Shown here piece after piece: positions 6,065-37,430 of a stretch of DNA of 41,023 bases. The first letter of the stretch is position 1; the number at the start of each line of letters is the position of its first letter. A model generated the notes under the pieces. It was not told the DNA's origin and did no database searches. It worked only from the letters and a program-made list of their open reading frames with translations. Source of the DNA: a virus (taxonomy: Duplodnaviria; Heunggongvirae; Uroviricota; Caudoviricetes); IMG/VR virus record IMGVR_UViG_2690316062_000001, positions 1 to 41,023 of that record. One strand, written 5' to 3'. A program made the translations under genes and the position numbers.

Positions 6065-7897
6065 CTACCAAAATCGGGTATAGCCAACATCGTGATTTAT
6101 ATCAATGCCACTGGAGCGTGTTTCCGTAACCCGCATACCTGGTGGCATATTTATAAATGATACCTTGATCTCACCATCAACTTTTGGCGCGGTAGCTTTA
6201 TTAATCATGAAGGGATTCGAGCCTGTGGCATCGGAGGCGTTGTTTGCCTGAGCCGGATCCACCGCCGGATAAGGAGTGTATCCCCGTGCCGGTATTCCCG
6301 TCCCATAAGCATCATAAGCACCCGCGCCCCACTGCGCAGAGTTAATGGCATCGACCGTGTCACCGGAACTGTCGGTAAACCACTCAATAATTGGCTTCAG
6401 CTTGTCCCACATATCCTGAAACCACTTAACAACCGGCCCCCAGTTATTGATCACCATCCCCAGCGGCGACCAGGCAAAAACTTTCTTAAGGAGTTCCCAG
6501 CCAGCCTCAAAATAAGGACCAATGGTTTCCCAGAGCTTCTTGAAATAAGGTCCGACAACATCCCAGTTAGTGATAATTAATCCCGCAGCCAGGGCTATCG
6601 CCGTCGCAATCATGCCAATCGGCGTCATCGACATGATCCTGCTGACAATGCTGATGGCACTGCCCACGCCCATCAATCCCAGTTTCAGAATCGCAAGACC
6701 GGCAGCAAGCCCGACGACGGCGCGAATAACCCGGGGATTTTCATCCGCAAACTTCGTGAATTTTTCCCCCAACTCCCCCAGCCATTGCGTGATATTTTTG
6801 GCGTCACCAGAAAATGCGCCGCCAATAGCCGCAAGGCCGTTAGTTGCGGTCCCCGTCATTGCCTCCCACAGGTTGGACAGCGTACCAAGCTGTGCCTGAA
6901 CACGTTTATTCAGGCTGGCCTGTTTATTCATCTTTTGCTGGATCTGATCGTAACCATCCTTTCCTTTATCGATCAGCGCATTGACCACCTGAAGGGTTTC
7001 GGCATCATCACCAAATATTGCCTTAAGTACACCTGTTCGCTTAACGTCGGTAAGTTTTCGCAGCTTTGCCAGTTGCTTAAACATGTTATCAAGACCGCCA
7101 AAACTTCCTTTGCCGTCAGTAAAATCGAGCTGTACCCCGAGTTTCTGACGGGCCATAACTTTATTGACGTCCCTGATTTTCTTAACGCTTAATCCGGACT
7201 GGATAACTTTTCGCAGGGCATTACCTGCCGACTCCCCGTTCATCCCCATCTGATCCATCATGACGCTGATGGGGGCAAGGCTCTGTGCAGCCTGAAGACC
7301 GTCCTTGTTCACCATCTTCAGAACAGAACTGGTTTTAGTGAAGAAGGACAACATGTTGGTATCGTCAACGCCCAGATAAAACGCCTTCTGGATAGTGTCG
7401 AACAGCCCCATCATGTCTTCTGACGCCGTTCCGGTAGCATCCTGCATCTTTGCAGCAAACTCAGCAGCCGCTTCCGGTGTTTTTTTTAGTTGTACCGCAA
7501 GATAAGCTGTCGCTTTACCCACACCGCCAAGAATATTTTCTGCCGGGATCCCCTGACGCACCAGCATCTGCATCATGTTCTGGAAATCAGCCGTTGTACC
7601 GGGTAGCTGGTTACCCAGGCCAATAGCCAGTTTATTGATGCCCTGAAAGCTCTTTCCGACCTCGCCGTTCGCATCCATCATGGCGACTTTCAGCCCGGTG
7701 GCGGCGTTTTCCTGATCGGCATAAGATTTCAGGGAAAGCGTCAGCCCCGCTGCCAATCCGCCACCAAGCGCCAGCCCACCCTGTGACGCCTCTTCCGCCT
7801 GGCGTTTAAATCCCCGGATTTTCTTTTGCATTTTCGACAGCGCGGGAGAAAGCCTGTCGACACCGGTGATCAACGCCTTAAGCTCAAATTCAGCCAT
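6065..7897 (-). CDS. Tail tape measure protein
   Basis: 610-aa ORF rich in Gly/Ala with hydrophobic segments, immediately after chaperone frameshift pair. Confidence 0.85.
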   Translation of the reverse strand: MAEFELKALITGVDRLSPALSKMQKKIRGFKRQAEEASQGGLALGGGLAAGLTLSLKSYADQENAATGLKVAMMDANGEVGKSFQGINKLAIGLGNQLPGTTADFQNMMQMLVRQGIPAENILGGVGKATAYLAVQLKKTPEAAAEFAAKMQDATGTASEDMMGLFDTIQKAFYLGVDDTNMLSFFTKTSSVLKMVNKDGLQAAQSLAPISVMMDQMGMNGESAGNALRKVIQSGLSVKKIRDVNKVMARQKLGVQLDFTDGKGSFGGLDNMFKQLAKLRKLTDVKRTGVLKAIFGDDAETLQVVNALIDKGKDGYDQIQQKMNKQASLNKRVQAQLGTLSNLWEAMTGTATNGLAAIGGAFSGDAKNITQWLGELGEKFTKFADENPRVIRAVVGLAAGLAILKLGLMGVGSAISIVSRIMSMTPIGMIATAIALAAGLIITNWDVVGPYFKKLWETIGPYFEAGWELLKKVFAWSPLGMVINNWGPVVKWFQDMWDKLKPIIEWFTDSSGDTVDAINSAQWGAGAYDAYGTGIPARGYTPYPAVDPAQANNASDATGSNPFMINKATAPKVDGEIKVSFINMPPGMRVTETRSSGIDINHDVGYTRFW

Positions 7898-19976: not shown

Positions 19977-20666
19977 TTAATCCAGTTTTGCAATATCTTG
20001 CTGTGAAAATGTGGTCTTTTGTTTTGAACGTGTTTTCGTTAAAAGCAATAAAGCTTGGCTATCAAGCTGTAGAAAAATGTGCTTCATTGCAACCCAGCGT
20101 TCAGTAAATGTCTCAGACCAGTTTTTTGATGTCACTCCCACCAGTGATGCCAGCTCCTGGTATTCATAGGTCTTACGCCCTGCCAGCTCGTTCTTCACAT
20201 CCTGTGCCGCCAGCCAGATCAACTTCTTCAAACGTTCCAGTGTCTTACCTGCAATTTTCCTGGTACCCAACAGAGTCTTAAACTCGCTCCATACCCACTG
20301 CGTTATGGTGACCTGATGTTCCCAGCGAACACTTTCGCTGTAACTCCACAGCAACCACGCTTTCTGATGTTCTTCGAGAGACAGAACCGCGCGGCGCCAT
20401 GAAGATGTTGAGAACTCAACCTGGCTGACCAGTGCAATGGATGAACCTTTTGCGTACGACTGCTTACCGGAAATCGGCGGATTATCCAGCGTAATCATCT
20501 TGCCCGTTACCTCATCCAGAATGCGCGGCTTCTTTCGTTTATATTTACCAGTATCAAATTGTGCATGCTCCAGCCAGGCTTCAAGCTGGCCTTTCGTTGC
20601 TCCGCTCAAATCAGCAGTAGCCACAATGAGTTGCTCGCGGACATACTGTAAATATTGGGTATTCAT
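19977..20666 (-). CDS. Antitermination protein Q-like
   Basis: 229-aa ORF immediately after ylcG/rusA and before the late-promoter gap. Confidence 0.7.
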   Translation of the reverse strand: MNTQYLQYVREQLIVATADLSGATKGQLEAWLEHAQFDTGKYKRKKPRILDEVTGKMITLDNPPISGKQSYAKGSSIALVSQVEFSTSSWRRAVLSLEEHQKAWLLWSYSESVRWEHQVTITQWVWSEFKTLLGTRKIAGKTLERLKKLIWLAAQDVKNELAGRKTYEYQELASLVGVTSKNWSETFTERWVAMKHIFLQLDSQALLLLTKTRSKQKTTFSQQDIAKLD

Positions 20667-20803
20667 GCGGCAGCTCCTTTCAGTGTTTTGGCGTAATTCT
20701 TCAGTATCCGGTAATCGGTCAAAACAGAACCGGGAAAACGATATAAGCGCAGGCGCACCCAGCGGCGGCGAAGACGTTCTGCCATATAAGACTCAAACAT
20801 CAT
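20663..20803 (-). CDS. ylcG: Small nin-region protein YlcG-like
   Basis: 46-codon [49 protein letters not shown] with overlaps to rusA (stop) and Q (start); below the 60-aa ORF-track cutoff. Confidence 0.6.
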
Positions 20804-21162
20804 TCATCTCCCAGTTCAGTGATGGTCAGCTCCAGCTTTCCACCTTTGGTAACGGGCATCTTCATAACGCGGTAATCAACGACCTGAGCATCATCCAGCC
20901 AGAAACCTGCTTTGGTGAGTGCGTCAAAAGCGGCCTTTTGTAGATTATCCAGGTCACGGCGACGGCGATCCGGCATGTGACACTCAATGCGGATTTTCAC
21001 TGGCATAGCCAGGCCGATATCCAGCATTGCGTTTTTAATGATTTGAGCGACGTTATCGCGGTATGCCTGTCCCTCTGCGCTGACGTGCGTGCGCCCGCGA
21101 TTATGGCGGTAATAGCGATTATTGCTCGGAGGCCAGGGTAATGTGATGCTGTAGGTATTCAC
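20800..21162 (-). CDS. rusA: Holliday junction resolvase RusA
   Basis: 120-aa [40 protein letters not shown]..., recalled as near-identical to DLP12 RusA. Confidence 0.9.
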
Positions 21163-21449
21163 GCCTTAATAACCCCCTCTTTCAGCCAGATAACCTGTGT
21201 TCTCGCCATACCTTCCAGCGCGCATTCTTTTGCATATGCTGCATCGACAAAATGTGTGCGGCGGTCGATTTCGTCGTGGCAGGCAGAACATGCAATGGTG
21301 GCAATCAGGTCTGGCGGTTTGATACCGGTACCGCACAATCCAGCCAGCCGGATATGTGCCAGTACAGACGTTTCAGGGTTGCCATTACATACGCCAGGGA
21401 TTCTTACCTGGCATTCCCGACCACGCGCTGCTTTTCTCAAATCAGCCAT
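21159..21449 (-). CDS. ybcO: YbcO-like nin-region protein (DUF1364, putative nuclease)
   Basis: Start at [14 protein letters not shown] (ATG overlapping ninE stop); Cys-rich 96-aa protein. Confidence 0.65.
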
Positions 21450-21612
21450 GACTCCTCCTTGCTGCCAGTCGCAACCATTTTTTATCAACCAGGCTGGCGG
21501 TATATCCGAGCAGTGTTGGTATTTCGGAAGGCTTCAGCTCAGGTTTACGCTTACGACGATTTGGTACTCTGTAAATGTGCCCGTTCATGACACGAATAAG
21601 CGGTGTAGCCAT
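21442..21612 (-). CDS. ninE: NinE-like protein
   Basis: 56-aa [64 protein letters not shown] overlap with ybcN stop. Confidence 0.65.
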   Translation of the reverse strand: MATPLIRVMNGHIYRVPNRRKRKPELKPSEIPTLLGYTASLVDKKWLRLAARRSHG

Positions 21613-22067
21613 TACGCCTCCTGCTTGTCGCGCAGCAGCTGGAACTCGCAGCTCGGCGGAATAGTCAGGTGGCAGCCAATATTCATCGCCCAGGCTTCAA
21701 CCTTACACAGGAAGACATACATCTCTCCGGTATCAAGATCGGAGGTATGGCGTAACGACTGAATAGTGGTGATTTCACCGGTTACGACATCAACCAGGTC
21801 TTTGGTTTCATAACCGAGGTATGTGTGTTTGAGAGCATCTTTTACCCATGCTGCAGTAGCGAACGATTTCCCCCTGCTTATGAGGTATTCACTGATTTCG
21901 CTGTACCACATGTGGCTAAGTGCATTCTGGGAAAGACTGCGTCTCTCGCGCCACGGTTTAAGCACCATGCGAAAGCATTTGCCGTCCTCCAGATAAGGCT
22001 GGATCTGCTGACCGATAGCGGTGAAGTTACCGCGATGCAGTTTGATGCCATCTTGTGGTAGGTTCAC
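21612..22067 (-). CDS. ybcN: YbcN-like nin-region protein
   Basis: 151-aa [42 protein letters not shown]..., matches recalled DLP12 YbcN. Confidence 0.7.
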
Positions 22068-22514
22068 GCTTCACCTCCACAGAGGTCAGACGCTGGATGC
22101 AAAAAAACGCAGGTGCATTTCTGCATCTGTGAAGGGAGAAGAGAATTTGGATTGTGTGTGCGCATAAACGTCCCCGTTTAGCGCAGAAGTCACCGAAGTT
22201 GTTCAGGCTCCGGTGATACAATTATGGCGAATTGATTATTCATAATCAAACAAGATAAGGTCTCAAACTTCATGCAAGCCAAGATTTATTTCTGACAGAA
22301 TCATACAAAGAAGCTATTGGTCAGAATCTACTCGGACTGTAAAACATACACATAACCTTAAGCTCTCACTTTAAGCATTGTTGAAATAATACCCGTCAAG
22401 TACAACCTTAACCACGACTGGGATATTTCCCTAGCTACCACGAGTTGTACGGCTATTAAACTGTCGTTAAATTCAGTAAGAGAATTTCATCCGATAAGTC
22501 AAGGCATGTAAAAC

Positions 22515-23558
22515 ATGAAAATTAACAAGATATTATCATCTGCAACACTATTGTATGGTATGTCAATGGCCATGTCGGTCGGGAGTTGTGCAACACCTGT
22601 CCAGACTAATCTTCCTGGTTACACCCCGGGTGCAGATATCATTAGTGTTTCACCGACCAGAAACCAGGTCGATCTCATTGGTGATGTTGTTTATTCCCAG
22701 ATAAAAGGAACTCGTTCTGTCAGACAGCTTCACATGTCAGTTCTTGTCCCACGAACAAATGATTTAAAACCAGCCATTATTTATTATCCCGGCGGCGGAT
22801 TCATGTCTTCTGAACATGACAAATTTATTGAAATGAGAATGGCTCTGGCTGAAGCTGGTTTTGTTGTGGCCGCTGTAGAATACAGAACAATTCCTGATAC
22901 ATTTCCAGCACCAGTTGAGGATGGGAAAGCTGCAATACGTTACTTGAGATAACATGCCAGCGATTATGGGATTGATCCTCAAAGAATCGGAGTTCTGGGT
23001 GACTCTGCCGGTGGATGGCTTGCCCAGATGATGGGAACTACAAATGGTGACAAAACCTTTGATAAAGGTGACTTTCTTCAGCAATCAGCAGATGTTCAGG
23101 CAGTTGCCACACTTTATGGGATTTCTGACTTGTTGAATATTGGCGAGGGGTTCCCTGAATCTGTGCAGGAGGTTCATCGATCTCCTGCCGTAACCGAAGC
23201 CTTAATGATCAATGGCCCTGCATTCAGAAGTTTTGCGGGAGCCCCCATAACAGCGTCAAAAGAAAAAGCGCTAAACGCCAGTCCAATCGGACATATGAAA
23301 GGAGTAAAACCCCCATTTCTTATTATGCATGGTAGCAAAGACACTCTGGTTTCACCTGAGCAAAGCGCCAAACTATTCAGGATGTTGAAGAAGAACGGCG
23401 ATAACGCTGAGTACGTTCTGGTAGAAGGGGCTGAGCATGGCGATAATACATGGTATCAGCCAATTATTATAAACAGAGTTGTTGAGTGGTTTACTAAAAA
23501 CCTGGGAACCCCAATAAAAACCGCTACCCAACAACAAAAAACAAACGCTGACCTGTAA
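22515..23558 (+). pseudogene. Alpha/beta-hydrolase esterase/lipase (GDSAG type) interrupted by in-frame TAA
   Basis: ORFs 22515-22952 and 23028-23558 are in the same frame; TAA at 22950-22952; the YYPGGGF oxyanion motif is upstream and the GDSAGG nucleophile elbow lies between the stop and the next Met. Confidence 0.7.
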
Positions 23559-23616
23559 AAAGCAGCCCACACTTATGCGGGCTAACCTATTTCACTCGAT
23601 TCAAAAGAAATTATTT

Positions 23617-23952
23617 TTAATGTGGTGTGCTTCGTGAAAATAAATTAATAACCAACACACCGGCACAAATCAACATCATGCCTATAATAGCTGGCAGGTC
23701 CAGCCGTTGGCCGAAAAATCCCCATGATAGTAAGCTAATCAGGACAATACCGACTCCTGACCAGATAGCATAAGCAATCCCTGTAGGAATATAAGCCAGC
23801 GTCTGAGCTAATAACCAGAATGATGCACAATAACAAATAATTGTACCAACAGATGGCCATAACCGTGTAAAACCTTCTGAAAACTTCATTAAGGTTGTAC
23901 CAATGACCTCTGCAAGTATTGCACCACCAAGATAAATATAAGGATTCATAGC
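23617..23952 (-). CDS. emrE: SMR-family multidrug efflux transporter EmrE
   Basis: MNPYIYLGGAILAEVIGTTLMKFSEGFTRLWPSVGTIICYCASFWLLAQTLAYIPTGIAYAIWSGVGIVLISLLSWGFFGQRLD... matches recalled E. coli EmrE. Confidence 0.9.
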   Translation of the reverse strand, partial: AMNPYIYLGGAILAEVIGTTLMKFSEGFTRLWPSVGTIICYCASFWLLAQTLAYIPTGIAYAIWSGVGIVLISLLSWGFFGQRLDLPAIIGMMLICAGVLVINLFSRSTPH

Positions 23953-24395
23953 ATATTCTTTCCTGTTCAAACTGGAGAGAATTGTACTACAGTTTGAACT
24001 CAACTCATCTGTTTCATCATTGTGTACCCATTGATGTTCTTTTATATACCCTCAATACCCGTTTCATCGCGGCACTCTGGCGACACTCCTTAAAAATCAG
24101 GTTCGTGCTCACCTTTCCTGCCCGTTCTCCCCGGGTAGCAAACCGATAATACACCGTTCGCCAGTCCTTACTATCAATGACCAAGATTCCTGCCCATATC
24201 ATTTTAGCCGCAGCCTAATTTATGCTGGTTATTGTTACGTGTGAATTCAGTTAGCTGCATAAATTGTCACGGAAGTGATACATCGATATTATCGAGAAAT
24301 TCACTCGAATTTATACGATTGAAACTGCACTTATATCTGTTTTAAATACTCCGAACACTCTTTACAACAACTGTGTGAAAATGGAGATAATTAAA

Positions 24396-25124
24396 ATGAA
24401 AAAGGGTTTGGCTATTTCATTCATTGCCGCCGTGTGTGCATTTGCTGCAAATGCGAGTGCTGAGGAAAGTAAAAACGGGTTTTATCTAACCGGTAAAGCC
24501 GGTGCCTCTGTGGCGTCGTTATCAGACCAGCGTTTTCAGTATGATGAAGGCGATTGGTCAACTGGATTTAAGGGCAGCAACAACCATGACACGGCGTTTA
24601 GTGGTGGTATCGCAGCGGGTTATGACTTTTACCCACAGTTCAGTATTCCTGTTCGTACGGAGCTTGAATTTTATGCCCGCGGAAAGGCTGATACAGAATA
24701 CAATCTTTTTAAGGACGACTGGGTGCGAGCTGACATGAAGAATGAGGTGTCAGTCAACAGCCTGATGTTGAACGCGTACTATGACTTCCGGAACGACAGC
24801 GCATTCACCCCTTGGGTGTCCGCAGGGATTGGTTATGCAAGAATTCATCAGAAATCAACGGGTGTCATCACCTTCGATAATGGATACGGATACAGTGACC
24901 GCGCATCTGATTCCCGTTCAGATTCTTCTGATAACTTCGCATGGAGCCTTGGTGCTGGCGTCCGCTATGACGTAACTCCAGATGTCAGTCTGGACATCAG
25001 TTATCGCTACCTGGATGCAGGTGATGCCAATGTGACTTATACCGATGATTGGGGCGATAAATATAAATCAGATGTTGATGTAAAAAGTCATGACATTATG
25101 CTTGGTGTAACCTATAACTTCTGA
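24396..25124 (+). CDS. Outer-membrane beta-barrel protein (Ail/Lom/PagC-like)
   Basis: Start chosen at the second Met with GGAGA 9 nt upstream; signal peptide MKKGLAISFIAAVCAFAANASA; alternating aromatic/hydrophilic strands; C-terminal ...GVTYNF. Confidence 0.7.
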   Translation: MKKGLAISFIAAVCAFAANASAEESKNGFYLTGKAGASVASLSDQRFQYDEGDWSTGFKGSNNHDTAFSGGIAAGYDFYPQFSIPVRTELEFYARGKADTEYNLFKDDWVRADMKNEVSVNSLMLNAYYDFRNDSAFTPWVSAGIGYARIHQKSTGVITFDNGYGYSDRASDSRSDSSDNFAWSLGAGVRYDVTPDVSLDISYRYLDAGDANVTYTDDWGDKYKSDVDVKSHDIMLGVTYNF

Positions 25125-25172
25125 ACAAACCTTTTCTAAATTATAATTACACGCTTACTGTGATTAACTAAA

Positions 25173-25206
25173 GCCCCCTGCAATATATTGCTATGGGGGG
25201 CTCTTT
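25173..25206 (+). terminator. Candidate terminator after OMP gene
   Basis: GCCCCC...GGGGGC stem enclosing a GCAATATATTGC palindrome, then TCTTT. Confidence 0.4.
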
Positions 25207-25605
25207 CGCTCATCGTGCAGGATGATTTTTGCCTAATTCCGTTATCACCACAATAATATTCATCGACATTTTCTTAATGGACACCTGAAAATATTTTATC
25301 GGGTAATATTCCGAGATTTTATTGTTTTTATTCTTTTCCGTTATCTCTGATAATATTGTAAGCATCCGGTGAACTCGCCTTGCGTGGACTAGCCAGTCGT
25401 TGTAGCACTGACGCCGCTGCGTTGAGTTCTTTTTTTCGCCATCAGCTCTCCTGCTTCTGTAGATAAAGAAGAGACAGAAGAATGGCGTTGATCACAACGA
25501 CCAGTAATGCGAATTCATCGGCCCCTCACACTGTTACCGCGGCAACGTCCTGCGCACAGAAGCTCTTATGCGTCCCCAGGTAATAAATAATTGCCTCTTT
25601 GCCCG

Positions 25606-26307
25606 TCATACACTTGCTCCTTTCAGCCCAAACTTAGCTTTGATTTCTGCGATCTTCGCCAGAGCCTGTGCACGATTTAGAGGTCTACCGCCCATGACAG
25701 GAAGTTGTTTTACTGGTTCAGGTATCGCCTCACCACGGTTAATTCGCGCGGTCATACAGGTCAGCTCATCGGCAGCTTTACGCCGTAATTCCGCGTCAGT
25801 CAGCGCATTGGCCCGCATGTTCTGGTACAGATTGGTAACCAACCAGTAGTGCGCGTTTGATTTCCATGGATAAGACTCTGCGTCCGGATACAGGCCACGC
25901 TTCCGGCAATACTCGTAAACCATATCAACCAGCTCGCTGGCGTTTGGCAGCCCGGCGGTAACGGATGCTTCTTCACGGCACCAGGCAACAAACTGCCCGG
26001 GTGATGGCAGGAATGGTCGATTCTGCCGACGGGCTACGCGCATTCCAGCGTTAACCTGTTCCATCGTGGTGATCCCATTTTCCCGGAAAGCCAGAACCCA
26101 CTGGCGGCGGATTTCGTTCAGTTCGTTCTGGTCCCGGTTAGCCAGGCTCGCCGGGAAAGTTGCCAGTAACTGGCTGAACACACCATTGATAATCTGCGCT
26201 ACCTGCTGTACCTGCGGCTTTTCGTCGTACTGTTCCGGCATGTTATTGGCGATCCGACGCATCTGCTCACGGTCAAAGTTAATCATCTGTGCGGCGATGT
26301 TTTTCAT
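25606..26307 (-). CDS. P: Replication protein P (DnaB helicase loader)
   Basis: 233-aa ORF MKNIAAQMINFDREQMRRIANNMPEQYDEKPQVQQVAQIINGVFSQLLATF..., recalled as near-identical to lambda P. Confidence 0.9.
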   Translation of the reverse strand: MKNIAAQMINFDREQMRRIANNMPEQYDEKPQVQQVAQIINGVFSQLLATFPASLANRDQNELNEIRRQWVLAFRENGITTMEQVNAGMRVARRQNRPFLPSPGQFVAWCREEASVTAGLPNASELVDMVYEYCRKRGLYPDAESYPWKSNAHYWLVTNLYQNMRANALTDAELRRKAADELTCMTARINRGEAIPEPVKQLPVMGGRPLNRAQALAKIAEIKAKFGLKGASV

Positions 26308-27233
26308 AGATCCACCCCGTAAATCCAGTCTGTGTTTGTCAGGTCGAGTTTTGGTTTTCCGGCTGTCACGCCAGCCTGTTGTTTGTTACGGTTGATTTCG
26401 AGTTGGGTCCACTTGTCGCGAAGTTTGGCCGGGCTCAGCACGTTACCGGACCAGAAGTTGTCCTGGCATGCCCAGCGGAAAAGCACGCACATGTCGCGGT
26501 GGTTACGTCCGTCACGTTCACGCATCAGGCGGATATCGTTAGCCCACCCTGCAAAATTCGGTTTTCTGGCTGATGGTGCGATGGTCTTCACCATGTCAAA
26601 CATCCACTCTGCGGCGGTCAGGTCTTCTGCTGTCCCCCACTTGCTGCCGCTCTGAATTGCAGCATCTGGTTTCACCACAGGAAGATCGTTTTCTGGTTGG
26701 TCAGAGGATTCGCCAGAATTCTCGGACGAAAAAGGTTTTATATTGTCTTTTGTTAGTTTGTCTTTTGTGTTTACCTGATTCGGGTAAACGCCTTTACCTG
26801 ATTTGGGTAAACTTTTCTTACCTGATTCAGGTAAATTTACCTCTTTCAGGTAAACTTTATTTTTCTTACCTGATTCGGGTAATGTTGACCATTCACTGAC
26901 CACATTATTAATACCGATATTCCGCCCGCTCTGAATCAAAATCCCACGCTTTACCAGAACACTTTTTGCAGCAGAACACTTGTGCGGTAATATCCCGGTC
27001 AATCCGGACAGTTGCTCGTTGCTCACCCAATCCAGTTTTTTATTAAAGCCATATGTTTTGCGCATGACAGCCAGGAAGACCAGAAGCTGGTGCTGTGTTA
27101 ATCCGGCCAGCATCACAGCTTCCAGCAACTCATTTGCAATGCGCGTATAACCATCATCGAGATCTGCCACGCGCGGCTCCTTTTGTGCCGCATCCGGCAC
27201 TGGAAAATTGAATATCTCAGCAGTGTTTGCCAT
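26304..27233 (-). CDS. O: Replication initiator O
   Basis: Start set at MANTAEIFNF with GGGAGG 5 nt upstream; ADLDDGY motif; iteron array inside the gene; ATGA overlap with P. Confidence 0.8.
   Translation of the reverse strand: MANTAEIFNFPVPDAAQKEPRVADLDDGYTRIANELLEAVMLAGLTQHQLLVFLAVMRKTYGFNKKLDWVSNEQLSGLTGILPHKCSAAKSVLVKRGILIQSGRNIGINNVVSEWSTLPESGKKNKVYLKEVNLPESGKKSLPKSGKGVYPNQVNTKDKLTKDNIKPFSSENSGESSDQPENDLPVVKPDAAIQSGSKWGTAEDLTAAEWMFDMVKTIAPSARKPNFAGWANDIRLMRERDGRNHRDMCVLFRWACQDNFWSGNVLSPAKLRDKWTQLEINRNKQQAGVTAGKPKLDLTNTDWIYGVDL
26781..26894. repeat. Replication origin iterons (5 copies of about 19 bp TTACCTGATTCGGGTAAAC)
   Basis: Copies at 26781-26799, 26804-26822, 26828-26846, 26847-26865, 26876-26894, each internally palindromic (TTACC...GGTAA), inside the O gene as in lambda ori. 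Confidence 0.75.
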
Positions 27234-27319
27234 AATTCCTCCCGCAATGAGTGTGTTACGATTTGCACCTGAAAGTCGGTTCTGTTCCAGCAGACCGGCT
27301 TTCGCCATTTCTGAACCTG

Positions 27320-27865
27320 TCATATCGCCCCCAGCATGGTAGTAACCATCGCCATCAATGGACCAGCCAGATCTGGGTCCACACGAAACATCGATACAAT
27401 ACCTTCACTAATTTCCTTCAGTTTCTGGTGGCGTGGTGCGTTGAGAATGACAGCCTGTTTTGCCTCACTGAGTTCCTTTTCCATTTCAGCCAACCTAGCC
27501 ATGAAGCTATCCTGCTCAACCAGGTAACCGCGATATTCCAGCGGTAGTACCGCCAGAATTGCCGGGGTCAGTTCACGCACGTTATTTCGGTATTTTTCAG
27601 AATCGAATTTGTTATCGAGGAAGCGGAACAGCTTCTGGCGTGCACGGCTGACATCATCAGGGAAATCGATGGTGCCGCCGCCCTGCTCCCGATACTCATT
27701 CACAATGAGTGTGGCAACGACATCCTGATTATCTACAGCCGACCAGGCGCGGACGGCATCACGGATTTTTTCGTGGCCTGCCACCTGTTTTGTTTGAGAA
27801 CGATTTATCACCGCAGTCGGGCTAAATCCGCTAGTCTGTTGGTATGTAAGTGGTTGCATAGTCAT
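27320..27865 (-). CDS. YdaT-like regulatory protein (cII position)
   Basis: 181-aa ORF between cro-like gene and O; motifs NEYREQGGG and ILAVLPLEYR resemble recalled Rac YdaT. Confidence 0.5.
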   Translation of the reverse strand: MTMQPLTYQQTSGFSPTAVINRSQTKQVAGHEKIRDAVRAWSAVDNQDVVATLIVNEYREQGGGTIDFPDDVSRARQKLFRFLDNKFDSEKYRNNVRELTPAILAVLPLEYRGYLVEQDSFMARLAEMEKELSEAKQAVILNAPRHQKLKEISEGIVSMFRVDPDLAGPLMAMVTTMLGAI

Positions 27866-27889
27866 TGCCTTATCAGTTAACGCCGCAGT

Positions 27890-28117
27890 TTAGGCGGCAG
27901 AATTACTCGCGTTAAACAATGGTGCGAGGTCGGGACGAATATCTGCTGGTTTAATCTTTCCACCAGTGGCTGAGACAATTTTCATTACATAGCGGGCATC
28001 AATTCCGCCACCGTGTAGCCAACGCCAAACTGTGGGTTGGGCTACACCGCATAGATCTGCCAGTCGTTTTTGACTGCCTGTAATACTGATTGCGAGTTGA
28101 ATGGTTTGATTTGTCAT
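27890..28117 (-). CDS. Cro/YdaS-like HTH repressor
   Basis: Start at ATG preceded by AGGA; HTH QKRLADLCGVAQPTVWRWL; divergent from cI. Confidence 0.6.
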   Translation of the reverse strand: MTNQTIQLAISITGSQKRLADLCGVAQPTVWRWLHGGGIDARYVMKIVSATGGKIKPADIRPDLAPLFNASNSAA

Positions 28118-28151
28118 TATCAATTCCTATTGGTATTGCAATGAATGAATA

Positions 28152-28180
28152 ATAGCAATGCGTATTAATCCAAGCAATAG
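28152..28180 (-). promoter_or_regulatory. PR-like promoter for the cro/replication operon
   Basis: Minus strand TTGCTT-17 nt-TATTAT upstream of the cro-like gene; overlaps AGCAATAGCAA operator-like motif. Confidence 0.45.
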
Positions 28181-28191
28181 CAAAACGTGTT

Positions 28192-28220
28192 TTGACCATC
28201 AATACGCAAGCGTATAAATT
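28192..28220 (+). promoter_or_regulatory. PRM-like promoter for cI (near-leaderless)
   Basis: TTGACC then 15-17 nt then TATAAA/TAAATT; expected start lies within a few nt of the cI ATG at 28228. Confidence 0.4.
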
Positions 28221-28227
28221 AAAACTT

Positions 28228-28920
28228 ATGAAAAAAGAAACTCTTGCTGATCGCTTAAATCTAGCGATGGAACAATCTGGAATGTCTCAAGGCGCTCTTG
28301 CAAAGGCGTCTGGCGTAGCTCAACCCACAATCTGGAGACTGACAAGCGGCAACGCGCGCGGCTCAACAAAAATTGTTGAAATAGCTAATGCATTGGGTGT
28401 TCGAACAGAATGGCTCTCTTCAGGCATAGGCCCGATGAGAAATGACGGTCAACAATCAGGGAAGCCTGCTGTCAGCCATTCCAAATACTTCAAAATTGAC
28501 GTTCTTGATATAGAAGTCAGTGCCGGGCCGGGTGTAATCAACCGTGAGTTTGTAGAAGTTCTACGCTCGGTTGAATACTCGTTTGACGATGCTCGTCACA
28601 TGTTCGATGGCAGGAAGGCGGAAAATATCCGCATCATTAACGTGCGTGGTGACAGCATGTCAGGAACGATCGAACCAGGTGATCTGCTGTTCGTTGATAT
28701 CACGGTTAAATCTTTCGACGGTGATGGTATCTATGCGTTTCTGTATGACGACACCGCCCATGTAAAACGCCTGCAAATGATGAAGGATAAGCTGCTGGTT
28801 ATCTCTGATAACAAGAGCTACTCACCGTGGGACCCGATCGAGAAAGACGAGATGAACCGCGTGTTCATCTTCGGGAAAGTCATCGGGAGCATGCCGCAGA
28901 CATATAGAAAGCATGGGTAG
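28228..28920 (+). CDS. CI-type repressor (HTH plus S24 LexA-like autopeptidase)
   Basis: N-terminal HTH QGALAKASGVAQPTIWRL; C-terminal GDSMSGTIEPGDLLFVD (Ser) and HVKRL (Lys) catalytic dyad. Confidence 0.85.
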   Translation: MKKETLADRLNLAMEQSGMSQGALAKASGVAQPTIWRLTSGNARGSTKIVEIANALGVRTEWLSSGIGPMRNDGQQSGKPAVSHSKYFKIDVLDIEVSAGPGVINREFVEVLRSVEYSFDDARHMFDGRKAENIRIINVRGDSMSGTIEPGDLLFVDITVKSFDGDGIYAFLYDDTAHVKRLQMMKDKLLVISDNKSYSPWDPIEKDEMNRVFIFGKVIGSMPQTYRKHG

Positions 28921-29004
28921 AAATCAGAACAAAATTATGCACTTCGCTTTTCAGCTTACTGTAGTAAGGCAATAAATTAGGCTTGACGTTAGCTATCAGG
29001 TGCA

Positions 29005-29049: not shown

Positions 29050-30189
29050 ATGGCAGCGGTTGAATTTCAATTGTCTAGGAAGATGATTGATTGGATAGCA
29101 AATTCTCAAGGAGTTTCTATCGAAACTCTTGCTGACCAAGTCATGCCCAAAAAGATTAATAAATTTCTTAACGGAGTGGTAAGTAAATCCGCAGCAGAAA
29201 AACTGGCAAAAATTGGAGGAATCCCTTTCGGTTTTTTATTTCTTGAAACGCCACCAACTCCAGCCAAACCCAAGATCCCTGACTTAAGGCAAGCTATAAA
29301 TAGCCGTGAGTTAGGAAAAGATTTTTTTGATGTTTACTATGATATAGAATATAAACTTGAGTGGTACAAAGACTATTTAAGAGAAAATGGTAATGATGAT
29401 CCACTCGATTTTATTGGTAAATTTAAATTTAATAGAAAATTAAATTATAAGGTTGTTGCTACAGACATAGCAAACACAATACATTTTGATATACAAAAAG
29501 AGATAAAAAATGTCACTTTTGAGAGCTATTTTTCTAAAGTGGCAAAATTAATAGAAGACACTGGCGTATTAGTTTTCAAGAATGGTGTTGTGGGTAATAA
29601 TAATAAAAGAAAACTTGACACGCGAGAGTTTCGTGGTTTCTGTATATCTGATAGCGTTGCTCCGATCATTTTTGTAAATAGCTCGGACGCGTTATCTGCG
29701 CAGGTATTTACATTATTTCATGAGGTGGCTCATCTTTGGCTTGGAGTCGATGGAGTCTCTGGGTGGGACACAGAAAAAAACATAGAATCTTTTTGTAATA
29801 AAGTTGCTGCTGAAATCTTAATGCCTGATAATCTCTTCAAATCTTTCTGGCTTAATGCATCCAGCGATAATAATTATTATCGAGTAAAAGAGGTTTCTAA
29901 GTTATTTAAGGTTAGTGATTTCGCTTGTGCAATCAAAGCGTTACAATTAGATTTGATAGAAAGAAACACTTTGGAGATAATTAAAGATCAAGCTTACAAT
30001 AAGCCCAAAAAAGAATCTAATGGTGGTTCTTTCTTTAACACATTACCTGTTCGTAACAGTCCAAAACTTACGAATATAATAATTTCCAAAGCAATGTCTC
30101 AACAATTACCATTAAGGGAAGCAGGCGTACTGCTAAATGTAAAAGCAGATACAGTTGTTGAATTTTATAAAAAACGAGAATCTCTATGA
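29050..30189 (+). CDS. HTH domain fused to ImmA/IrrE-family zinc metallopeptidase (COG2856)
   Basis: AGGTGA RBS; N-terminal HTH-like segment; HEVAHLWLG (HExxH) followed by VAAEILMP, the ImmA/IrrE signature; strongly AT-rich. Confidence 0.8.
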   Translation: MAAVEFQLSRKMIDWIANSQGVSIETLADQVMPKKINKFLNGVVSKSAAEKLAKIGGIPFGFLFLETPPTPAKPKIPDLRQAINSRELGKDFFDVYYDIEYKLEWYKDYLRENGNDDPLDFIGKFKFNRKLNYKVVATDIANTIHFDIQKEIKNVTFESYFSKVAKLIEDTGVLVFKNGVVGNNNKRKLDTREFRGFCISDSVAPIIFVNSSDALSAQVFTLFHEVAHLWLGVDGVSGWDTEKNIESFCNKVAAEILMPDNLFKSFWLNASSDNNYYRVKEVSKLFKVSDFACAIKALQLDLIERNTLEIIKDQAYNKPKKESNGGSFFNTLPVRNSPKLTNIIISKAMSQQLPLREAGVLLNVKADTVVEFYKKRESL

Positions 30190-30698
30190 TTCATAATGGA
30201 AAATTCTTAATTGATAGTAATGTCTTCATAGAGGCAAAAAACTTTGCATATAACTTCAATTATTGCAAAATATTTTGGGATTTTCTTCTCGCTTTACACA
30301 TTAATGGTCTGATTTATAGCATTAATGCTGTAAAAAAAGAACTATGTGCAAAAGATGATCCATTGTGTAAATGGATTAAAGAAGAGTTACCATCATCATT
30401 CTTCGAAGATGAGCATAGTTCAATAGAAAATTATGCAAAGTTAATAAATTGGTCAACTAAATTAGATGTTACCGAAAAGGCAAAGTTTGATTTTGCAAGC
30501 CATGAAAAAGCAGATGCTTTTTTAATAGCCCATGCGATGACACATGGATATACTATTATTACCCATGAGAAACCATCCGGTGGCAAACCTAAAAAAAGAA
30601 TAATGATCCCGGATGCTGCTGCTTCTCACGGCGTTAAGACATTAACACTATATGAATTTCTTCCAAGATACGCTAGTCATAATTTTTCTTTGAAATAA
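30186..30698 (+). CDS. PIN-like nuclease domain protein (DUF4411 family)
   Basis: ATGA start/stop overlap with upstream gene; N-terminal FLIDSNVFIEAKN PIN-like strand with Asp; further acidic residues spaced as in PIN folds; ...IAHAMTHGYTIITHE. Confidence 0.7.
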   Translation: MIHNGKFLIDSNVFIEAKNFAYNFNYCKIFWDFLLALHINGLIYSINAVKKELCAKDDPLCKWIKEELPSSFFEDEHSSIENYAKLINWSTKLDVTEKAKFDFASHEKADAFLIAHAMTHGYTIITHEKPSGGKPKKRIMIPDAAASHGVKTLTLYEFLPRYASHNFSLK

Positions 30699-34502: not shown

Positions 34503-34824
34503 GGCCTGTCAGTTTCTTAAGATATCCAGACCAACCGCCACCAACTGGATACGAACAGGCCGCCTACAGGCAACACGCAAAGACCCCACTAAACTAAAAT
34601 CTCCTTACCTCACAACACGACAAGCCTGCATTGCGGCGCTTCAGTCTCCGCTGCATACTGTCCAGGTGAGCGCGGGTGATGGCATAACAGAGGAAAGAAA
34701 ATGTCACTCTTCCGCAGAGGTGAAATATGGTACGCCAGTTTCACATTGCCGAACGGTAAAAGATTTAAACAGTCTCTTGGAACAAAGGACAAAAGGCAGG
34801 CGACAGAGCTCCATGACAAGCTAA
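34474..34824 (+). CDS. xis: Excisionase (P22 Xis-like)
   Basis: 116-aa product from [32 protein letters not shown] (HTH); overlaps the int start by about 120 nt. Confidence 0.65.
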
Positions 34825-35864
34825 AGGCTGAAGCATGGCGGGTCAGCAAACTTGGTGAAATACCTGATATGACGTTCGAGGAGGCGTGTATCAGGTGGCT
34901 CGAAGAGAAAGCACATAAAAAATCACTGGACGATGACAAAAGCCGGATCGGATTCTGGCTTCAACATTTCGCAGGAATGCAACTAAGAGACATTACTGAA
35001 TCAAAAATTTATTCAGCAATGCAGAAAATGACGAACCGGCGTCATGAGGAAAACTGGAAACTCAGGGCAGAAGCATGCAGAAAAAAAGGGAAACCAGTTC
35101 CAGAATACACGCCAAAACCAGCGTCCGTTGCAACGAAGGCTACGCATCTTTCATTTATAAAGGCCCTGCTAAGAGCCGCAGAGCGTGAATGGAAAATGCT
35201 GGATAAGGCACCAATTATTAAAGTGCCTCAACCAAAGAATAAACGGATCCGCTGGCTGGAGCCCCATGAAGCACAAAGGCTGATTGATGAATGTCCGGAG
35301 CCATTAAAGTCTGTTGTTGAATTTGCACTGGCAACAGGCTTAAGACGCTCGAACATCATCAACCTTGAATGGCAACAAATAGATATGCAGCGCCGGGTGG
35401 CATGGATAAACCCGGAAGAGAGTAAATCAAACCGCGCAATTGGCGTTGCGCTGAATGATACTGCATGTCGCGTATTGAAAAAACAAATCGGGAATCATCA
35501 CCGTTGGGTATTTGTGTACAAGGAAAGCTGTACCAAACCAGACGGAACGAAAGCGCCAACAGTAAGGAAGATGCGGTATGACGCAAACACAGCCTGGAAA
35601 GCAGCGCTGAGACGGGCTGGTATTGATGATTTCAGATTTCACGACTTGAGACACACCTGGGCAAGTTGGCTGGTTCAAGCCGGAGTCCCGTTGTCAGTGT
35701 TACAGGAAATGGGAGGCTGGGAGTCTATCGAAATGGTTCGTCGATATGCTCACCTTGCACCTAATCACCTTACCGAACACGCACGGCAAATAGACTCGAT
35801 CCTGAACCCATCGGTCCCAAATTCGTCCCAGTCAAAAAATAAGGAAGGTACTAATGATGTGTAA
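34701..35864 (+). CDS. int: Tyrosine integrase (P22/DLP12 Int-like)
   Basis: 387-aa [45 protein letters not shown]...; catalytic-domain motifs ...[10 protein letters not shown]...RYAHL; stop 16 bp from the att core. Confidence 0.9.
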
Positions 35865-36110: not shown

Positions 36111-37430
36111 ATGGCGCTTTCAAGACAAAAACTAACCTTCGAACGAATTCGAAGATTTACTTTACCTGAAGGGAAAAACCAAGTTTTCCTTTGGGATACG
36201 GACGTAACAAGCTTGGCATGTCGAGCAACTCGTGGAGCAAAAGCCTTTGTATTCCAAAGCCTGTATGCGGGAAAAACCCTTCGCATGACCATTGGCAACA
36301 TTAACGATTGGAGGATTGATGATGCGAGGGCCGAAGCCAGGCGACTGCAAACATTAATCGATACTGGGATAGATCCGCGTATAGCTAAGGCGGAAAAAAT
36401 TGCTGAAGCGGAATCACAGCAGGCTGAATCTCGTAAAACGAAGGCAACCTTTTCAAGCGCTTGGGAAGATTATCTTGATGAATTGAGAACCGGAATCAGC
36501 GCAAAAACTAAACGCCCCTACTCTGCACGCTACATTGCCGATCACGTTAACTTGTCCAGTCGTGGAGGCGAAAGTAAAAAAAGAGGCCGGGGCCCAACCT
36601 CACCTGGGCCACTGGCTAGCCTGCTCGACCGACCATTATCAGAACTAACACCAGAGAACATTGCCGAATGGCTAAGTACAGAGAGACAAAATCGGCCTAC
36701 CGTCACTGCTCATGCCTACCGTCTGTTGCGTGCATTCATCAAATGGGCTAATTACCAGAAAAAATATCAGGGAATAATCCATGGCGATCTTGCACAAGAT
36801 CATAACGTGAGAAAAATGGTTCCAATATCAGCGAGCAAAGCGGGAGATTGCTTACAAAAAGAACAGCTCAAAAGCTGGTTCAGTGCCGTGCGTAGCCTCA
36901 ATAATCCCATTGCATCAGCCTATCTCCAAGTGCTTTTGCTCACCGGTGCACGGCGTGAAGAAATTTCCTCACTTCGCTGGTCTGACATAGATTTCAAATG
37001 GTCAAGCATGCGAATTAAAGACAAGATCGAAGGCGAGCGAATTATCCCCCTCACTCCCTATGTTTCTGACTTGTTACGCTCACTGATGGAGATCCCCAAT
37101 CGTGGTACAAACGAGGAGAATTGGGTTTTCAGAAGTAACAGCAAAAGTGGCAAAATTATTGAACCGCGTTCAGCACATAATAGAGCATTAACTCGCGCGG
37201 AGTTACCACATATCAGCTTGCACGGATTGCGCCGTAGTTTTGGGACCCTCGCTGAATGGGTCGAAGTACCAACAGGTATTGTTGCGCAGATTATGGGCCA
37301 TAAGCCTAGCGCTCTTGCTGAAAAGCACTATCGCCGCCGTCCATTAGATTTGCTAAGAAAATGGCATGAAAAAGTTGAATTATGGATCTTAGAAGAAGCA
37401 AAAATAAAAAACAACGTTGATAAGCGTTGA
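36111..37430 (+). CDS. Tyrosine integrase of second element (P4-type)
   Basis: 439-aa ORF; C-terminal LHGLRRSFGTLAEW...IMGHKPSALAEKHYRRR catalytic motifs (R, HxxR, Y). Confidence 0.85.
   Translation: MALSRQKLTFERIRRFTLPEGKNQVFLWDTDVTSLACRATRGAKAFVFQSLYAGKTLRMTIGNINDWRIDDARAEARRLQTLIDTGIDPRIAKAEKIAEAESQQAESRKTKATFSSAWEDYLDELRTGISAKTKRPYSARYIADHVNLSSRGGESKKRGRGPTSPGPLASLLDRPLSELTPENIAEWLSTERQNRPTVTAHAYRLLRAFIKWANYQKKYQGIIHGDLAQDHNVRKMVPISASKAGDCLQKEQLKSWFSAVRSLNNPIASAYLQVLLLTGARREEISSLRWSDIDFKWSSMRIKDKIEGERIIPLTPYVSDLLRSLMEIPNRGTNEENWVFRSNSKSGKIIEPRSAHNRALTRAELPHISLHGLRRSFGTLAEWVEVPTGIVAQIMGHKPSALAEKHYRRRPLDLLRKWHEKVELWILEEAKIKNNVDKR

Follow-up and report, generated by a model that had tools for sequence, protein, structure and literature searches.

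The DNA analysed here, which we call the window, is the whole stretch of 41,023 nucleotides of the IMG/VR virus record IMGVR_UViG_2690316062_000001, and it is a lambdoid (DLP12/lambda-type) prophage of Escherichia coli with its early-right operon on the minus strand. In the gap between the replication gene P with the adjoining ren and the ybcN/NinB-like gene of this operon lie three passenger genes, namely the efflux gene emrE, an esterase pseudogene and a gene for an outer-membrane protein (OMP), and the last one, which is carried by a cassette inserted into ren, is the main subject of this study. An earlier note on this DNA had placed the three genes in this region, and all of them are present there with scores far beyond chance; it had also rightly described them as lying partly on the strand opposite to the early operon, since the OMP and esterase genes are opposed to it while emrE is co-directional. 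What it overlooked are the cassette splitting ren, the remnants of an IS66-family insertion sequence (IS) and of a phosphoethanolamine-transferase gene, and the ybcK deletion beside emrE. We determined the identities of the genes, the family and the fold of the OMP, the borders of the insertion, the remnants inside it, its target duplication and its distribution. The features of the cargo region are as follows, by position in the window.

22515-23558, plus strand: esterase (alpha/beta hydrolase, BD-FAE type) pseudogene, with Pfam BD-FAE matches on both halves
23563-23584, bidirectional: terminator-like hairpin where the esterase and emrE genes converge
23588-23622: deletion joint, 35 bp matching both sides of the ylcJ-ybcK module of related prophages
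23617-23949, minus strand: emrE, a small-multidrug-resistance (SMR) proton/drug antiporter of 110 amino acids (aa) with Glu14 present
24017-24238, minus strand: ren 3' fragment (about codons 28-100) with an in-frame TAA, aligned to the intact ren of L002, L004 and L021
24231-24238: left target repeat, ATTGTTAC
24239-25529, plus strand: cassette in ren, 1,291 bp, from the left end GTGTGAATTC… to the IS66-family terminal repeat …CCCCTCAC
24264-24292, plus strand: sigma-70 promoter-like site TTGTCA-17-TATTAT, 10/12 matches, about 100 bp upstream of the OMP start
24396-25124, plus strand: OMP gene, encoding a Hra/Hek/Tia-family outer-membrane protein of 242 aa
25172-25203, folding on both strands: GC-rich hairpin after the OMP gene
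25277-25357, plus strand: phosphoethanolamine-transferase stub ept' (first about 27 codons, degenerate), identified by DNA homology to annotated genes
25358-25529, minus strand: IS66-family element, internally deleted, 172 bp, with the terminal repeat GTAAGCATCCGGTGAACTCGCC… from 25358 and the other repeat at 25503-25529
25530-25537: right target repeat, ACTGTTAC
25530-25609, minus strand: ren 5' fragment (26 codons), starting with the right target repeat

In the collinear prophages from which the cassette is absent (L002, L004, L021 and L022), an intact ren of 100 aa occupies this site, and the RefSeq annotation in the carriers reads 'protein ren, frameshifted; internal stop'. The presence/absence pattern between collinear phages by which an accessory gene ('moron') is recognised is found with L021, which is collinear with the window at 98% (20673-24231) and at 95.6% (25531-28934) and has an intact ren and no cassette. 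In lambda, ren is dispensable. Along the plus strand, the cassette consists of the OMP gene preceded by about 150 bp that can be aligned to the upstream DNA of paralogs on islands, then of the hairpin after the gene, which has its equivalent at the same place in the paralog locus L018, and then of the transferase stub and the IS66 remnant. A phosphoethanolamine-transferase gene also follows the OMP paralogs in L018 (a plasmid), L019 (a tRNA-Phe island) and L020 (a tRNA-Leu island), where the order is integrase, phosphoethanolamine transferase, OMP. At the DNA level the IS66 remnant is 80-86% identical to the left ends and the tnpA of IS66-family copies on chromosomes and plasmids; instead of the full tnpA-tnpB-tnpC set it keeps only the first 17 codons of a truncated tnpA (ATG 25442, stop 25389), and it is non-autonomous. 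Its terminal repeats fit the GTAAGC…CCGGTGAA type, the one at 25358 agreeing with that of the IS66 copy of L016 at 26/27 positions and the outer one, GTGAGGGGCCGATGAATTCGC, at 18/26 by hand count. Two small open reading frames (ORFs) in this part were tried and rejected: one of 51 aa on the minus strand (25210-25365) overlaps the region of the transferase stub and has no family match, and a hydrophobic mini-ORF near 25470-25520, considered as a toxin, lies inside the IS66 end.

The borders of the cassette can be read against an empty site. The allele of L022 reads GCTGGTT-ACTGTCAC-ACCTGTTACC… (ACCTG…) without any gap, and the right flank of the other carriers, ACTGTTAC-AGCTGATAGTGC…, is base-for-base collinear with this intact ren, therefore the original insertion duplicated 8 bp and deleted nothing. 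Elements of the IS66 family typically yield 8-bp target duplications, a length which ISfinder and Han et al. 2001 are said to give. The window itself is different at its right flank: positions 25530-25560 read …ACTGTTAC-CGCGGCAACG…, which is another ren allele than that of L003, L006, L008 and L011 and is 9 bp shorter, and this shortfall implies a later crossover at the repeated CTGTTAC, specific to the window. An insertion which itself deleted 9 bp of ren, with a 6-bp duplication and 6-bp inverted ends, had been considered, and was replaced by the present account after the comparison with the other carriers and L022.

Regarding the distribution of the cassette, we surveyed 5,426 complete E. 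coli genomes, 50,697 phage records, IMG/VR, metagenome contigs and contigs of one genome per species. The cassette was found in 6 of the 5,426 complete genomes and in none of the phage records, and not one of the 5,426 genomes matches positions 22400-25600 over at least 80% of the length. The carriers examined were 11 genome loci (10 distinct places), together with 4 contigs of IMG/VR and 2 of metagenomes, and all of them agree in the left junction and in the transferase/IS junction; the right flank likewise agrees between the carriers wherever IS3 or IS1 left it uncut, with the exception of the recombinant flank of the window. Moreover, the exact OMP protein adjoins P in all 10 distinct places, and lies in ren where the far side survives, three of the places being cut by IS3; the matches to the cassette in IMG/VR and the metagenomes all have the same ren junctions. 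Because all carriers examined share the same junctions, the evidence points to one ancestral insertion, later spread by phage recombination. No exact match to the cassette hairpin was found in the one-genome-per-species contigs. As side observations, the IS66 remnant has been hit again by IS3 or IS1 in L009, L010, L012 (near locus position 7100) and L027, and an IS3 insertion cuts the prophage short beside the lambda attachment region near ybhC.

As for the route by which the OMP gene came into ren, we infer the following order of events. An IS66-family element would first have inserted near the 5' end of the phosphoethanolamine-transferase gene in an island. A transposase-less unit of 1.29 kb, made up of the OMP promoter, gene and terminator, the transferase stub and the IS end, would then have transposed into ren and duplicated 8 bp; a surrogate end, or a second IS copy eroded since, would have served at its left border. 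The exact empty site would be an intact ren allele reading GCTGGTTACTGTTACAGCTGATAG. The recombination at the duplicated CTGTTAC, the loss of ylcJ-ybcK between short direct repeats and the nonsense mutation of the esterase would have followed later in the window. The LAA island carrying hes contains modules bounded by IS66-family transposases (PMC5539235), which fits the proposed route of capture.

The start of the OMP gene is the ATG at 24396, which is backed by a GGAGA ribosome-binding site and by the alignment of paralogs, the GTG at 24375 being over-extended. The product has a signal peptide ending …ANASA/EES and a C-terminal Phe, and it matches Pfam OMP_b-brl with E 1.6e-23. Its relatives were sought among 5.8 billion proteins. 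Over its full length it is 76-78% identical to the island-borne E. coli paralogs P0002-P0005, among which one cluster at 76% holds a Hek-named member, and it is 59% and 58% identical to two large clusters named 'invasion outer membrane protein Tia' by NCBI (P0027 and P0029). The exact protein (P0106/WP_016243514), with the UniRef name 'Heat resistant agglutinin 1', occurs on 464 contigs and is indexed in about 1,000 collection blocks, and the variants in its cluster differ by single residues only. Judged by this sequence kinship, the OMP is a member of the Hra/Hek/Hes/Tia/PagN family of adhesins and invasins. When the protein and its island-borne paralogs are compared, dN/dS (the ratio of nonsynonymous to synonymous divergence) is 0.15-0.17 and the differences lie at residues about 48-63, 99-115 (with a 4-residue deletion), 155-178 and 210-222; these four patches centre on the loop tips while the barrel strands are almost invariant. 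No publication on this OMP was found, and the accessions of the protein are uncited in the literature.

The earlier note had called the OMP Ail/Lom-like and had read the three genes as one coherent host-facing block of self-contained units, with serum resistance and adhesion given by the OMP. An outer-membrane barrel of eight strands is indeed what the protein is modelled to be: the AlphaFold model from 45 homologs (pLDDT 88.4) shows eight long strands (29-51, 54-77, 86-106, 110-130, 137-163, 166-192, 197-216 and 222-241) and four long hairpin loops, and the protein shares the Pfam clan of Ail and Lom, has a weak full-length match to the Lom PHROG (E 1.8e-6) and stands in a lambdoid prophage, where Lom and Bor are classic lambda morons (PMC6969025). 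However, this fold is common to the whole clan and hence not diagnostic for Ail/Lom; in the fold search the nearest solved structures are those of OmpA-TM, of NspA and of an eight-stranded porin from Legionella, with Ail only at rank 15 (3qra/3qrc, E about 3e-7, TM 0.28-0.46) and OmpX at rank 48, and no solved structure of a close relative was found. The match to Pfam Ail_Lom (PF06316) reaches 16.2 bits against a cutoff of 23 and covers residues 127-211 only, and a protein of 242 aa is far larger than Ail or OmpX. Because the Ail_Lom score is below threshold and the Lom PHROG is distant, and with 59-78% identity to proteins of the Hra/Tia family on the other side, the OMP is related to Ail/Lom at the superfamily level only. 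The proposal thus fails on family membership and survives in the form of an envelope adhesin of the same superfamily, and taken together with the separate histories of the three genes described below and with emrE being part of the early operon, 67 bp after ren, the reading as a whole is decidedly unlikely.

The family to which the OMP is assigned offers a different expectation of its function. Hra1, Hra2, Tia, Hek and Hes, all integral proteins of the outer membrane, share 65-90% identity and differ for the most part in the exposed loops, and their phenotypes are haemagglutination, autoaggregation, adherence and sometimes invasion (PMC5539235). Loop 2 of Hek is required for its activities, and both Hek and Tia bind heparan-sulfate proteoglycan (PMC2553418). 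Serum resistance is absent from the phenotypes of the family given in these two papers (PMC2553418, PMC5539235). From its sequence, the OMP would leave the cytoplasm through Sec and be placed in the outer membrane by BAM, forming a barrel of eight strands with four long, allele-specific loops at the surface; by homology, it would confer haemagglutination, autoaggregation and/or proteoglycan-dependent adherence on the lysogen. It might instead serve the phage rather than host colonisation, either in superinfection exclusion by remodelling of the surface or as a decoy or receptor: membrane proteins dominate the morons of lambda phages and superinfection-exclusion genes are common there (PMC6969025), and the orientation of the gene puts its transcription apart from the lytic operons. 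Against this stand the lack of any PADLOC match, the lack of a close homolog among the 50,697 phage records and the record of the characterised relatives, all of them adhesins or invasins (PMC2553418, PMC5539235), so that a service to the phage appears highly improbable.

With respect to expression, the OMP gene carries candidate signals of its own. The flanking DNA is AT-rich, with a GC content of 0.335-0.37 upstream and 0.36-0.38 downstream of the gene, and is thus unlike the phage backbone (0.49-0.575) in base composition; the DNA upstream of the esterase is similarly poor in GC (0.355-0.375). The claim of the earlier note that each gene has its own AT-rich upstream DNA is therefore right for these two genes and wrong for emrE, whose distance from the ren stop codon is only 67 bp; the OMP gene has a promoter-like site and a hairpin of its own, and emrE is not a self-contained unit but lies within the early operon. 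The site TTGTCA-17-TATTAT is the top-scoring one of a 4-kb scan, and its -10 hexamer is partly conserved in the island paralogs. The hairpin at 25172-25203 has z scores of -3.63 on the plus and -3.42 on the minus strand; its plus-strand U tract, CUCUUUCG, is weak, and on the minus strand the fold is followed by UUUAGUUAAU. In the lysogen, where pR is repressed, a promoter belonging to the gene itself would probably drive expression of the OMP, in the direction antisense to the early operon. On induction, rightward transcripts would cross the cassette antisense and run into the hairpin in its minus-strand fold, and N-type antitermination would be expected to overcome it. Two further observations concern this DNA. 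A promoter-like TTCACA-17-TAAATT on the minus strand (9/12, 24217-24245) straddles the left junction of the cassette and points to ren' and emrE, its -35 coming from the cassette DNA and its -10 from ren, and such sites occur at chance level in the region. In addition, (A)TCGAT repeats abound upstream of the OMP gene (24280-24345) and of the paralogs in L019 and L020, e.g. CATCGATATTATCGAG…TCGAATTTATACGATTGA, and these motifs could be binding sites of a regulator.

These signals also bear on the suspicion that the cassette is a neutral or decaying hitch-hiker, brought in by accident through an IS, not expressed in the lysogen and of no effect on it. Its rarity (6/5,426 complete genomes), the wreckage around the OMP gene (the split ren with an internal stop, ept', tnpA' and the nonsense esterase), the state of several carriers, which are truncated prophages with IS3 or IS1 in the IS66 remnant, and a promoter without independent support would all agree with such a fate. 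Yet the OMP ORF is intact in every carrier, the exact protein has been met on those 464 contigs, and the ribosome-binding site, the signal peptide, the C-terminal Phe and the hairpin are all intact, and on balance we regard a silent and useless cassette as unlikely.

A bolder reading is that a transposase-less, IS66-bounded cassette moved a pathogenicity-island Hra adhesin into an otherwise complete-looking lambdoid phage, where it is expressed and alters adherence or autoaggregation of the host; such a course of events is possible, though we would not call it probable. Several points weigh against the account of the OMP gene given here. In respect of the capture, ATTGTTAC and ACTGTTAC agree at 7/8 positions and not at 8/8; the left end of the cassette, GTGTGAATTCAG, resembles an IS66 repeat only as GTG…TGAATTC, that is 10 bases with a 9-base gap, and the alignment with the island paralogs may reach the left junction itself; no direct donor came to light, and outside phages the nearest paralogs in E. 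coli genomes and plasmids reach only 75-81% DNA identity. In respect of the function, the placement in the Hra family goes by the names Hra1, Hek and Tia as given in databases, and the low dN/dS mostly reflects the history before the capture. In respect of the expression, promoter-like sites are at chance level in the region and TTGTCA-17-TATTAT is a mere consensus match, the hairpin after the gene, whose U tract is poor, fails the consensus terminator scan, and the AT-rich flanks could be silenced by H-NS.

The second passenger, emrE, is what the earlier note had taken it for, a genuine EmrE. It scores 239 bits on the NCBIfam EmrE model NF042984 (cutoff 226), has E 3.4e-35 with Pfam Multi_Drug_Res (PF00893), and its residues 1-110 align with residues 1-110 of the K-12 EmrE structure in PDB 3b5d with 108/110 identical, the changes being I101V and L104F; the membrane-embedded E14 sits in …AILAEVIG…. 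The ATG at 23949 yields the canonical 110 aa, and a 128-aa ORF from the TTG at 24003 is over-extended. The gene also matches phrog_1395 (E 4e-58), whose PHROG category is 'moron', and EmrE has been published as cargo of DLP12 and lambda (PMC8382913, PMC6969025), with its occurrence in two lambda genomes reported (PMC6969025). The mRNA would be made from the early operon or by read-through and would be terminated at 23563-23584, and the product, as its sequence predicts, would be a dual-topology SMR antiporter which swaps protons for cationic aromatic compounds via Glu14. On the emrE transcript the hairpin at 23563-23584 has 8-9 pairs, is followed by CUUUUUAC and passes the consensus terminator scan; one of its pairs is a G·U, in whose place the esterase transcript has an A·C mismatch. 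The earlier note had called the OMP hairpin terminator-like and this one weak; the OMP hairpin is the more stable of the two (z -3.6), but it is the emrE hairpin which passes the terminator scan, so that the ranking is roughly reversed. A perfect 10-bp inverted repeat, GTTCAAACTG…CAGTTTGAAC (23965-23999, minus strand), upstream of the ribosome-binding site of emrE was rejected as a structure, its z score of -0.23 being no better than that of shuffled sequence, and an Rfam scan of 21000-27000 at E <= 1 gave nothing relevant and no known riboswitch or RNA family upstream of emrE.

Next to emrE, a module of 2,039 bp comprising ylcJ and ybcK (a large serine recombinase) is absent from the window, as seen from the BLAST overlap and the junction sequences, and its loss fuses the esterase terminator to the emrE stop codon. 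In related prophages the module is bracketed by imperfect direct repeats of about 36 bp ending AAATTATTTTTAATG, each after a hairpin, and the comparison of window positions 23588-23622 with positions 7189-7223 and 9263-9297 of L002 places the loss exactly there. It was noticed besides that the left repeat copy resembles a second, truncated emrE 3' end. The esterase-emrE fusion was found in 2/5,426 complete E. coli genomes and in the metagenome contig L027.

The third passenger, the esterase, is a nonsense pseudogene and not a frameshifted one, in accordance with the claim that it is a pseudogene. Its length is exactly that of the intact 347-aa gene in other prophages, and it differs from that of L002 by four substitutions and zero indels. 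A change of G to T at 22950 turns GAA into TAA (22950-22952; E146*), upstream of the catalytic motif GDSAG, and the contig L027, otherwise 99.9% identical, keeps GAA at codon 146. The intact allele matches phrog_3341 with E 1.9e-129, and the N-terminus resembles a lipoprotein signal (…MSVGSC); the gene would once have encoded a secreted enzyme.

The three passengers have different distributions. While the cassette is rare, emrE with its flank occurs in about 3,700 of the 5,426 complete genomes, and the arrangement esterase-ybcK-emrE-ren-P is present, with about 97% identity, in viable lambdoid phages such as 4A7, Lambda_4C10, Perceval, 1W and 3W. E. coli S1 has the OMP insertion and no emrE, in strain F467 (L021) the esterase and emrE are joined by the fusion seen in the window, with both ren and the esterase intact, most OMP carriers retain ylcJ-ybcK beside emrE, and L027 has the fusion together with the OMP insertion. 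Since emrE, the esterase and the OMP assort independently, they are not one block; of the envelope block described in the earlier note, what stands is that the gap from ren to ninB holds accessory, envelope-directed cargo. It is quite probable, in our view, that the gap from P/ren to ninB is a moron hotspot holding three independently acquired passengers, namely emrE, the dead esterase and the OMP.

The prophage around this region is a mosaic of Mu-like tail and baseplate genes, lying left of the cargo (among them 384-968 and 6065-7897, with Gp48 and a minor tail protein), and a lambda/DLP12-like early region. The order of the early-right operon on the minus strand is O, P, ren, emrE, ybcN/NinB-like, ninE, ybcO, rusA, and the main landmarks are given below.

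19977-20666: Q-type ORF left of rusA, with ORFs in the position of the lysis genes also to the left
20800-21162, minus strand: rusA
21612-22067, minus strand: ybcN/NinB-like gene, downstream border of the cargo, from the RefSeq annotation of collinear loci and a weak Pfam NinB match
25606-26307, minus strand: replication gene P, upstream border of the cargo, Pfam Phage_lambda_P E 9e-62
26304-27323, minus strand: O
28192-28920: cI-like S24 repressor, right of the cargo region
34701-35864: integrase, right of the cargo region

Two observations were made outside the cargo region. Right after the cI-like repressor, at 29050-30698, lie an M78/IrrE-type metallopeptidase (379 aa), with weak PADLOC matches to capP and RmrA, and a DUF4411 protein (170 aa, PIN-like), and this pair may be a defence or toxin-antitoxin-like moron. 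The integrase gene at 34701-35864 is followed in tandem by a second tyrosine-integrase gene at 36111-37430 with a P4-type arm-binding domain, and no tRNA gene was detected anywhere in the window, which together suggests a second integrative element abutting the prophage.

Taken as a whole, the region shows the ordinary biology of morons, though the acquisition of the OMP has left unusually clear traces. The emrE and esterase genes are routine and already known lambdoid cargo and add nothing new; what is new is that a known adhesin family is represented here by an uncharacterised allele, at a kind of site new for it, and that the history of its capture can be followed, since the neighbour gene of the donor, the IS end and the target duplication have all remained legible. 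The cassette is in this respect a modest and clean example of a surface virulence-type gene leaving a tRNA-linked island for a phage. If the bolder reading is true, a loop-variant adhesin would be transmissible by lysogeny, and given expression of the gene, a family of adhesins reported until now from pathogenicity islands alone would be spread in this way. The allele, which is only about 76-81% DNA-identical to the island hra-type genes, would be missed by typing schemes which need about 90% identity to reference genes. Moreover, the ren-to-ninB gap was assembled piecemeal and should not be taken as a co-selected envelope island.

Comparison with known systems puts these features in perspective. 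The emrE gene is like that of DLP12 and of the phages 4A7, Lambda_4C10 and Perceval in lying directly downstream of ren in the early-right operon, with the shared neighbours esterase, ybcN, ninE, ybcO and rusA (PMC6969025, PMC8382913); unlike in those loci, the ylcJ-ybcK module beside it is deleted here and the upstream ren is split by the OMP cassette. The OMP gene resembles lom and bor of lambda as a gene in a lambdoid prophage, outside the essential operons and plausibly expressed in the lysogen. It differs from them in belonging to another family, with Ail_Lom below threshold, in residing in ren rather than in the tail or lysis region, and in being on the strand opposite to its surroundings with the scars of IS-mediated capture around it. 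Like the Hra family and PagN of Salmonella, the protein is of about 25 kDa with eight predicted membrane strands, four long loops and divergence centred on the loops (PMC5539235, PMC2553418). The published members of the Hra family are at home on tRNA-linked pathogenicity islands, whereas this allele is lodged in a gene of a lambdoid prophage, and its loops are different from those of the other members, loop 2 being shorter by four residues. As for the vehicle, transposase-less mobile insertion cassettes bounded by IS ends exist, and so does one-ended or surrogate-end mobilisation by IS elements. The cassette in ren is like mobile insertion cassettes in having a passenger without transposase, an IS-family terminal repeat and a flanking target duplication; it is unlike them in that only one outer terminal repeat is clear, the other border being vestigial at best, and in that all known copies are at one site, so that any continuing mobility would be hypothetical.

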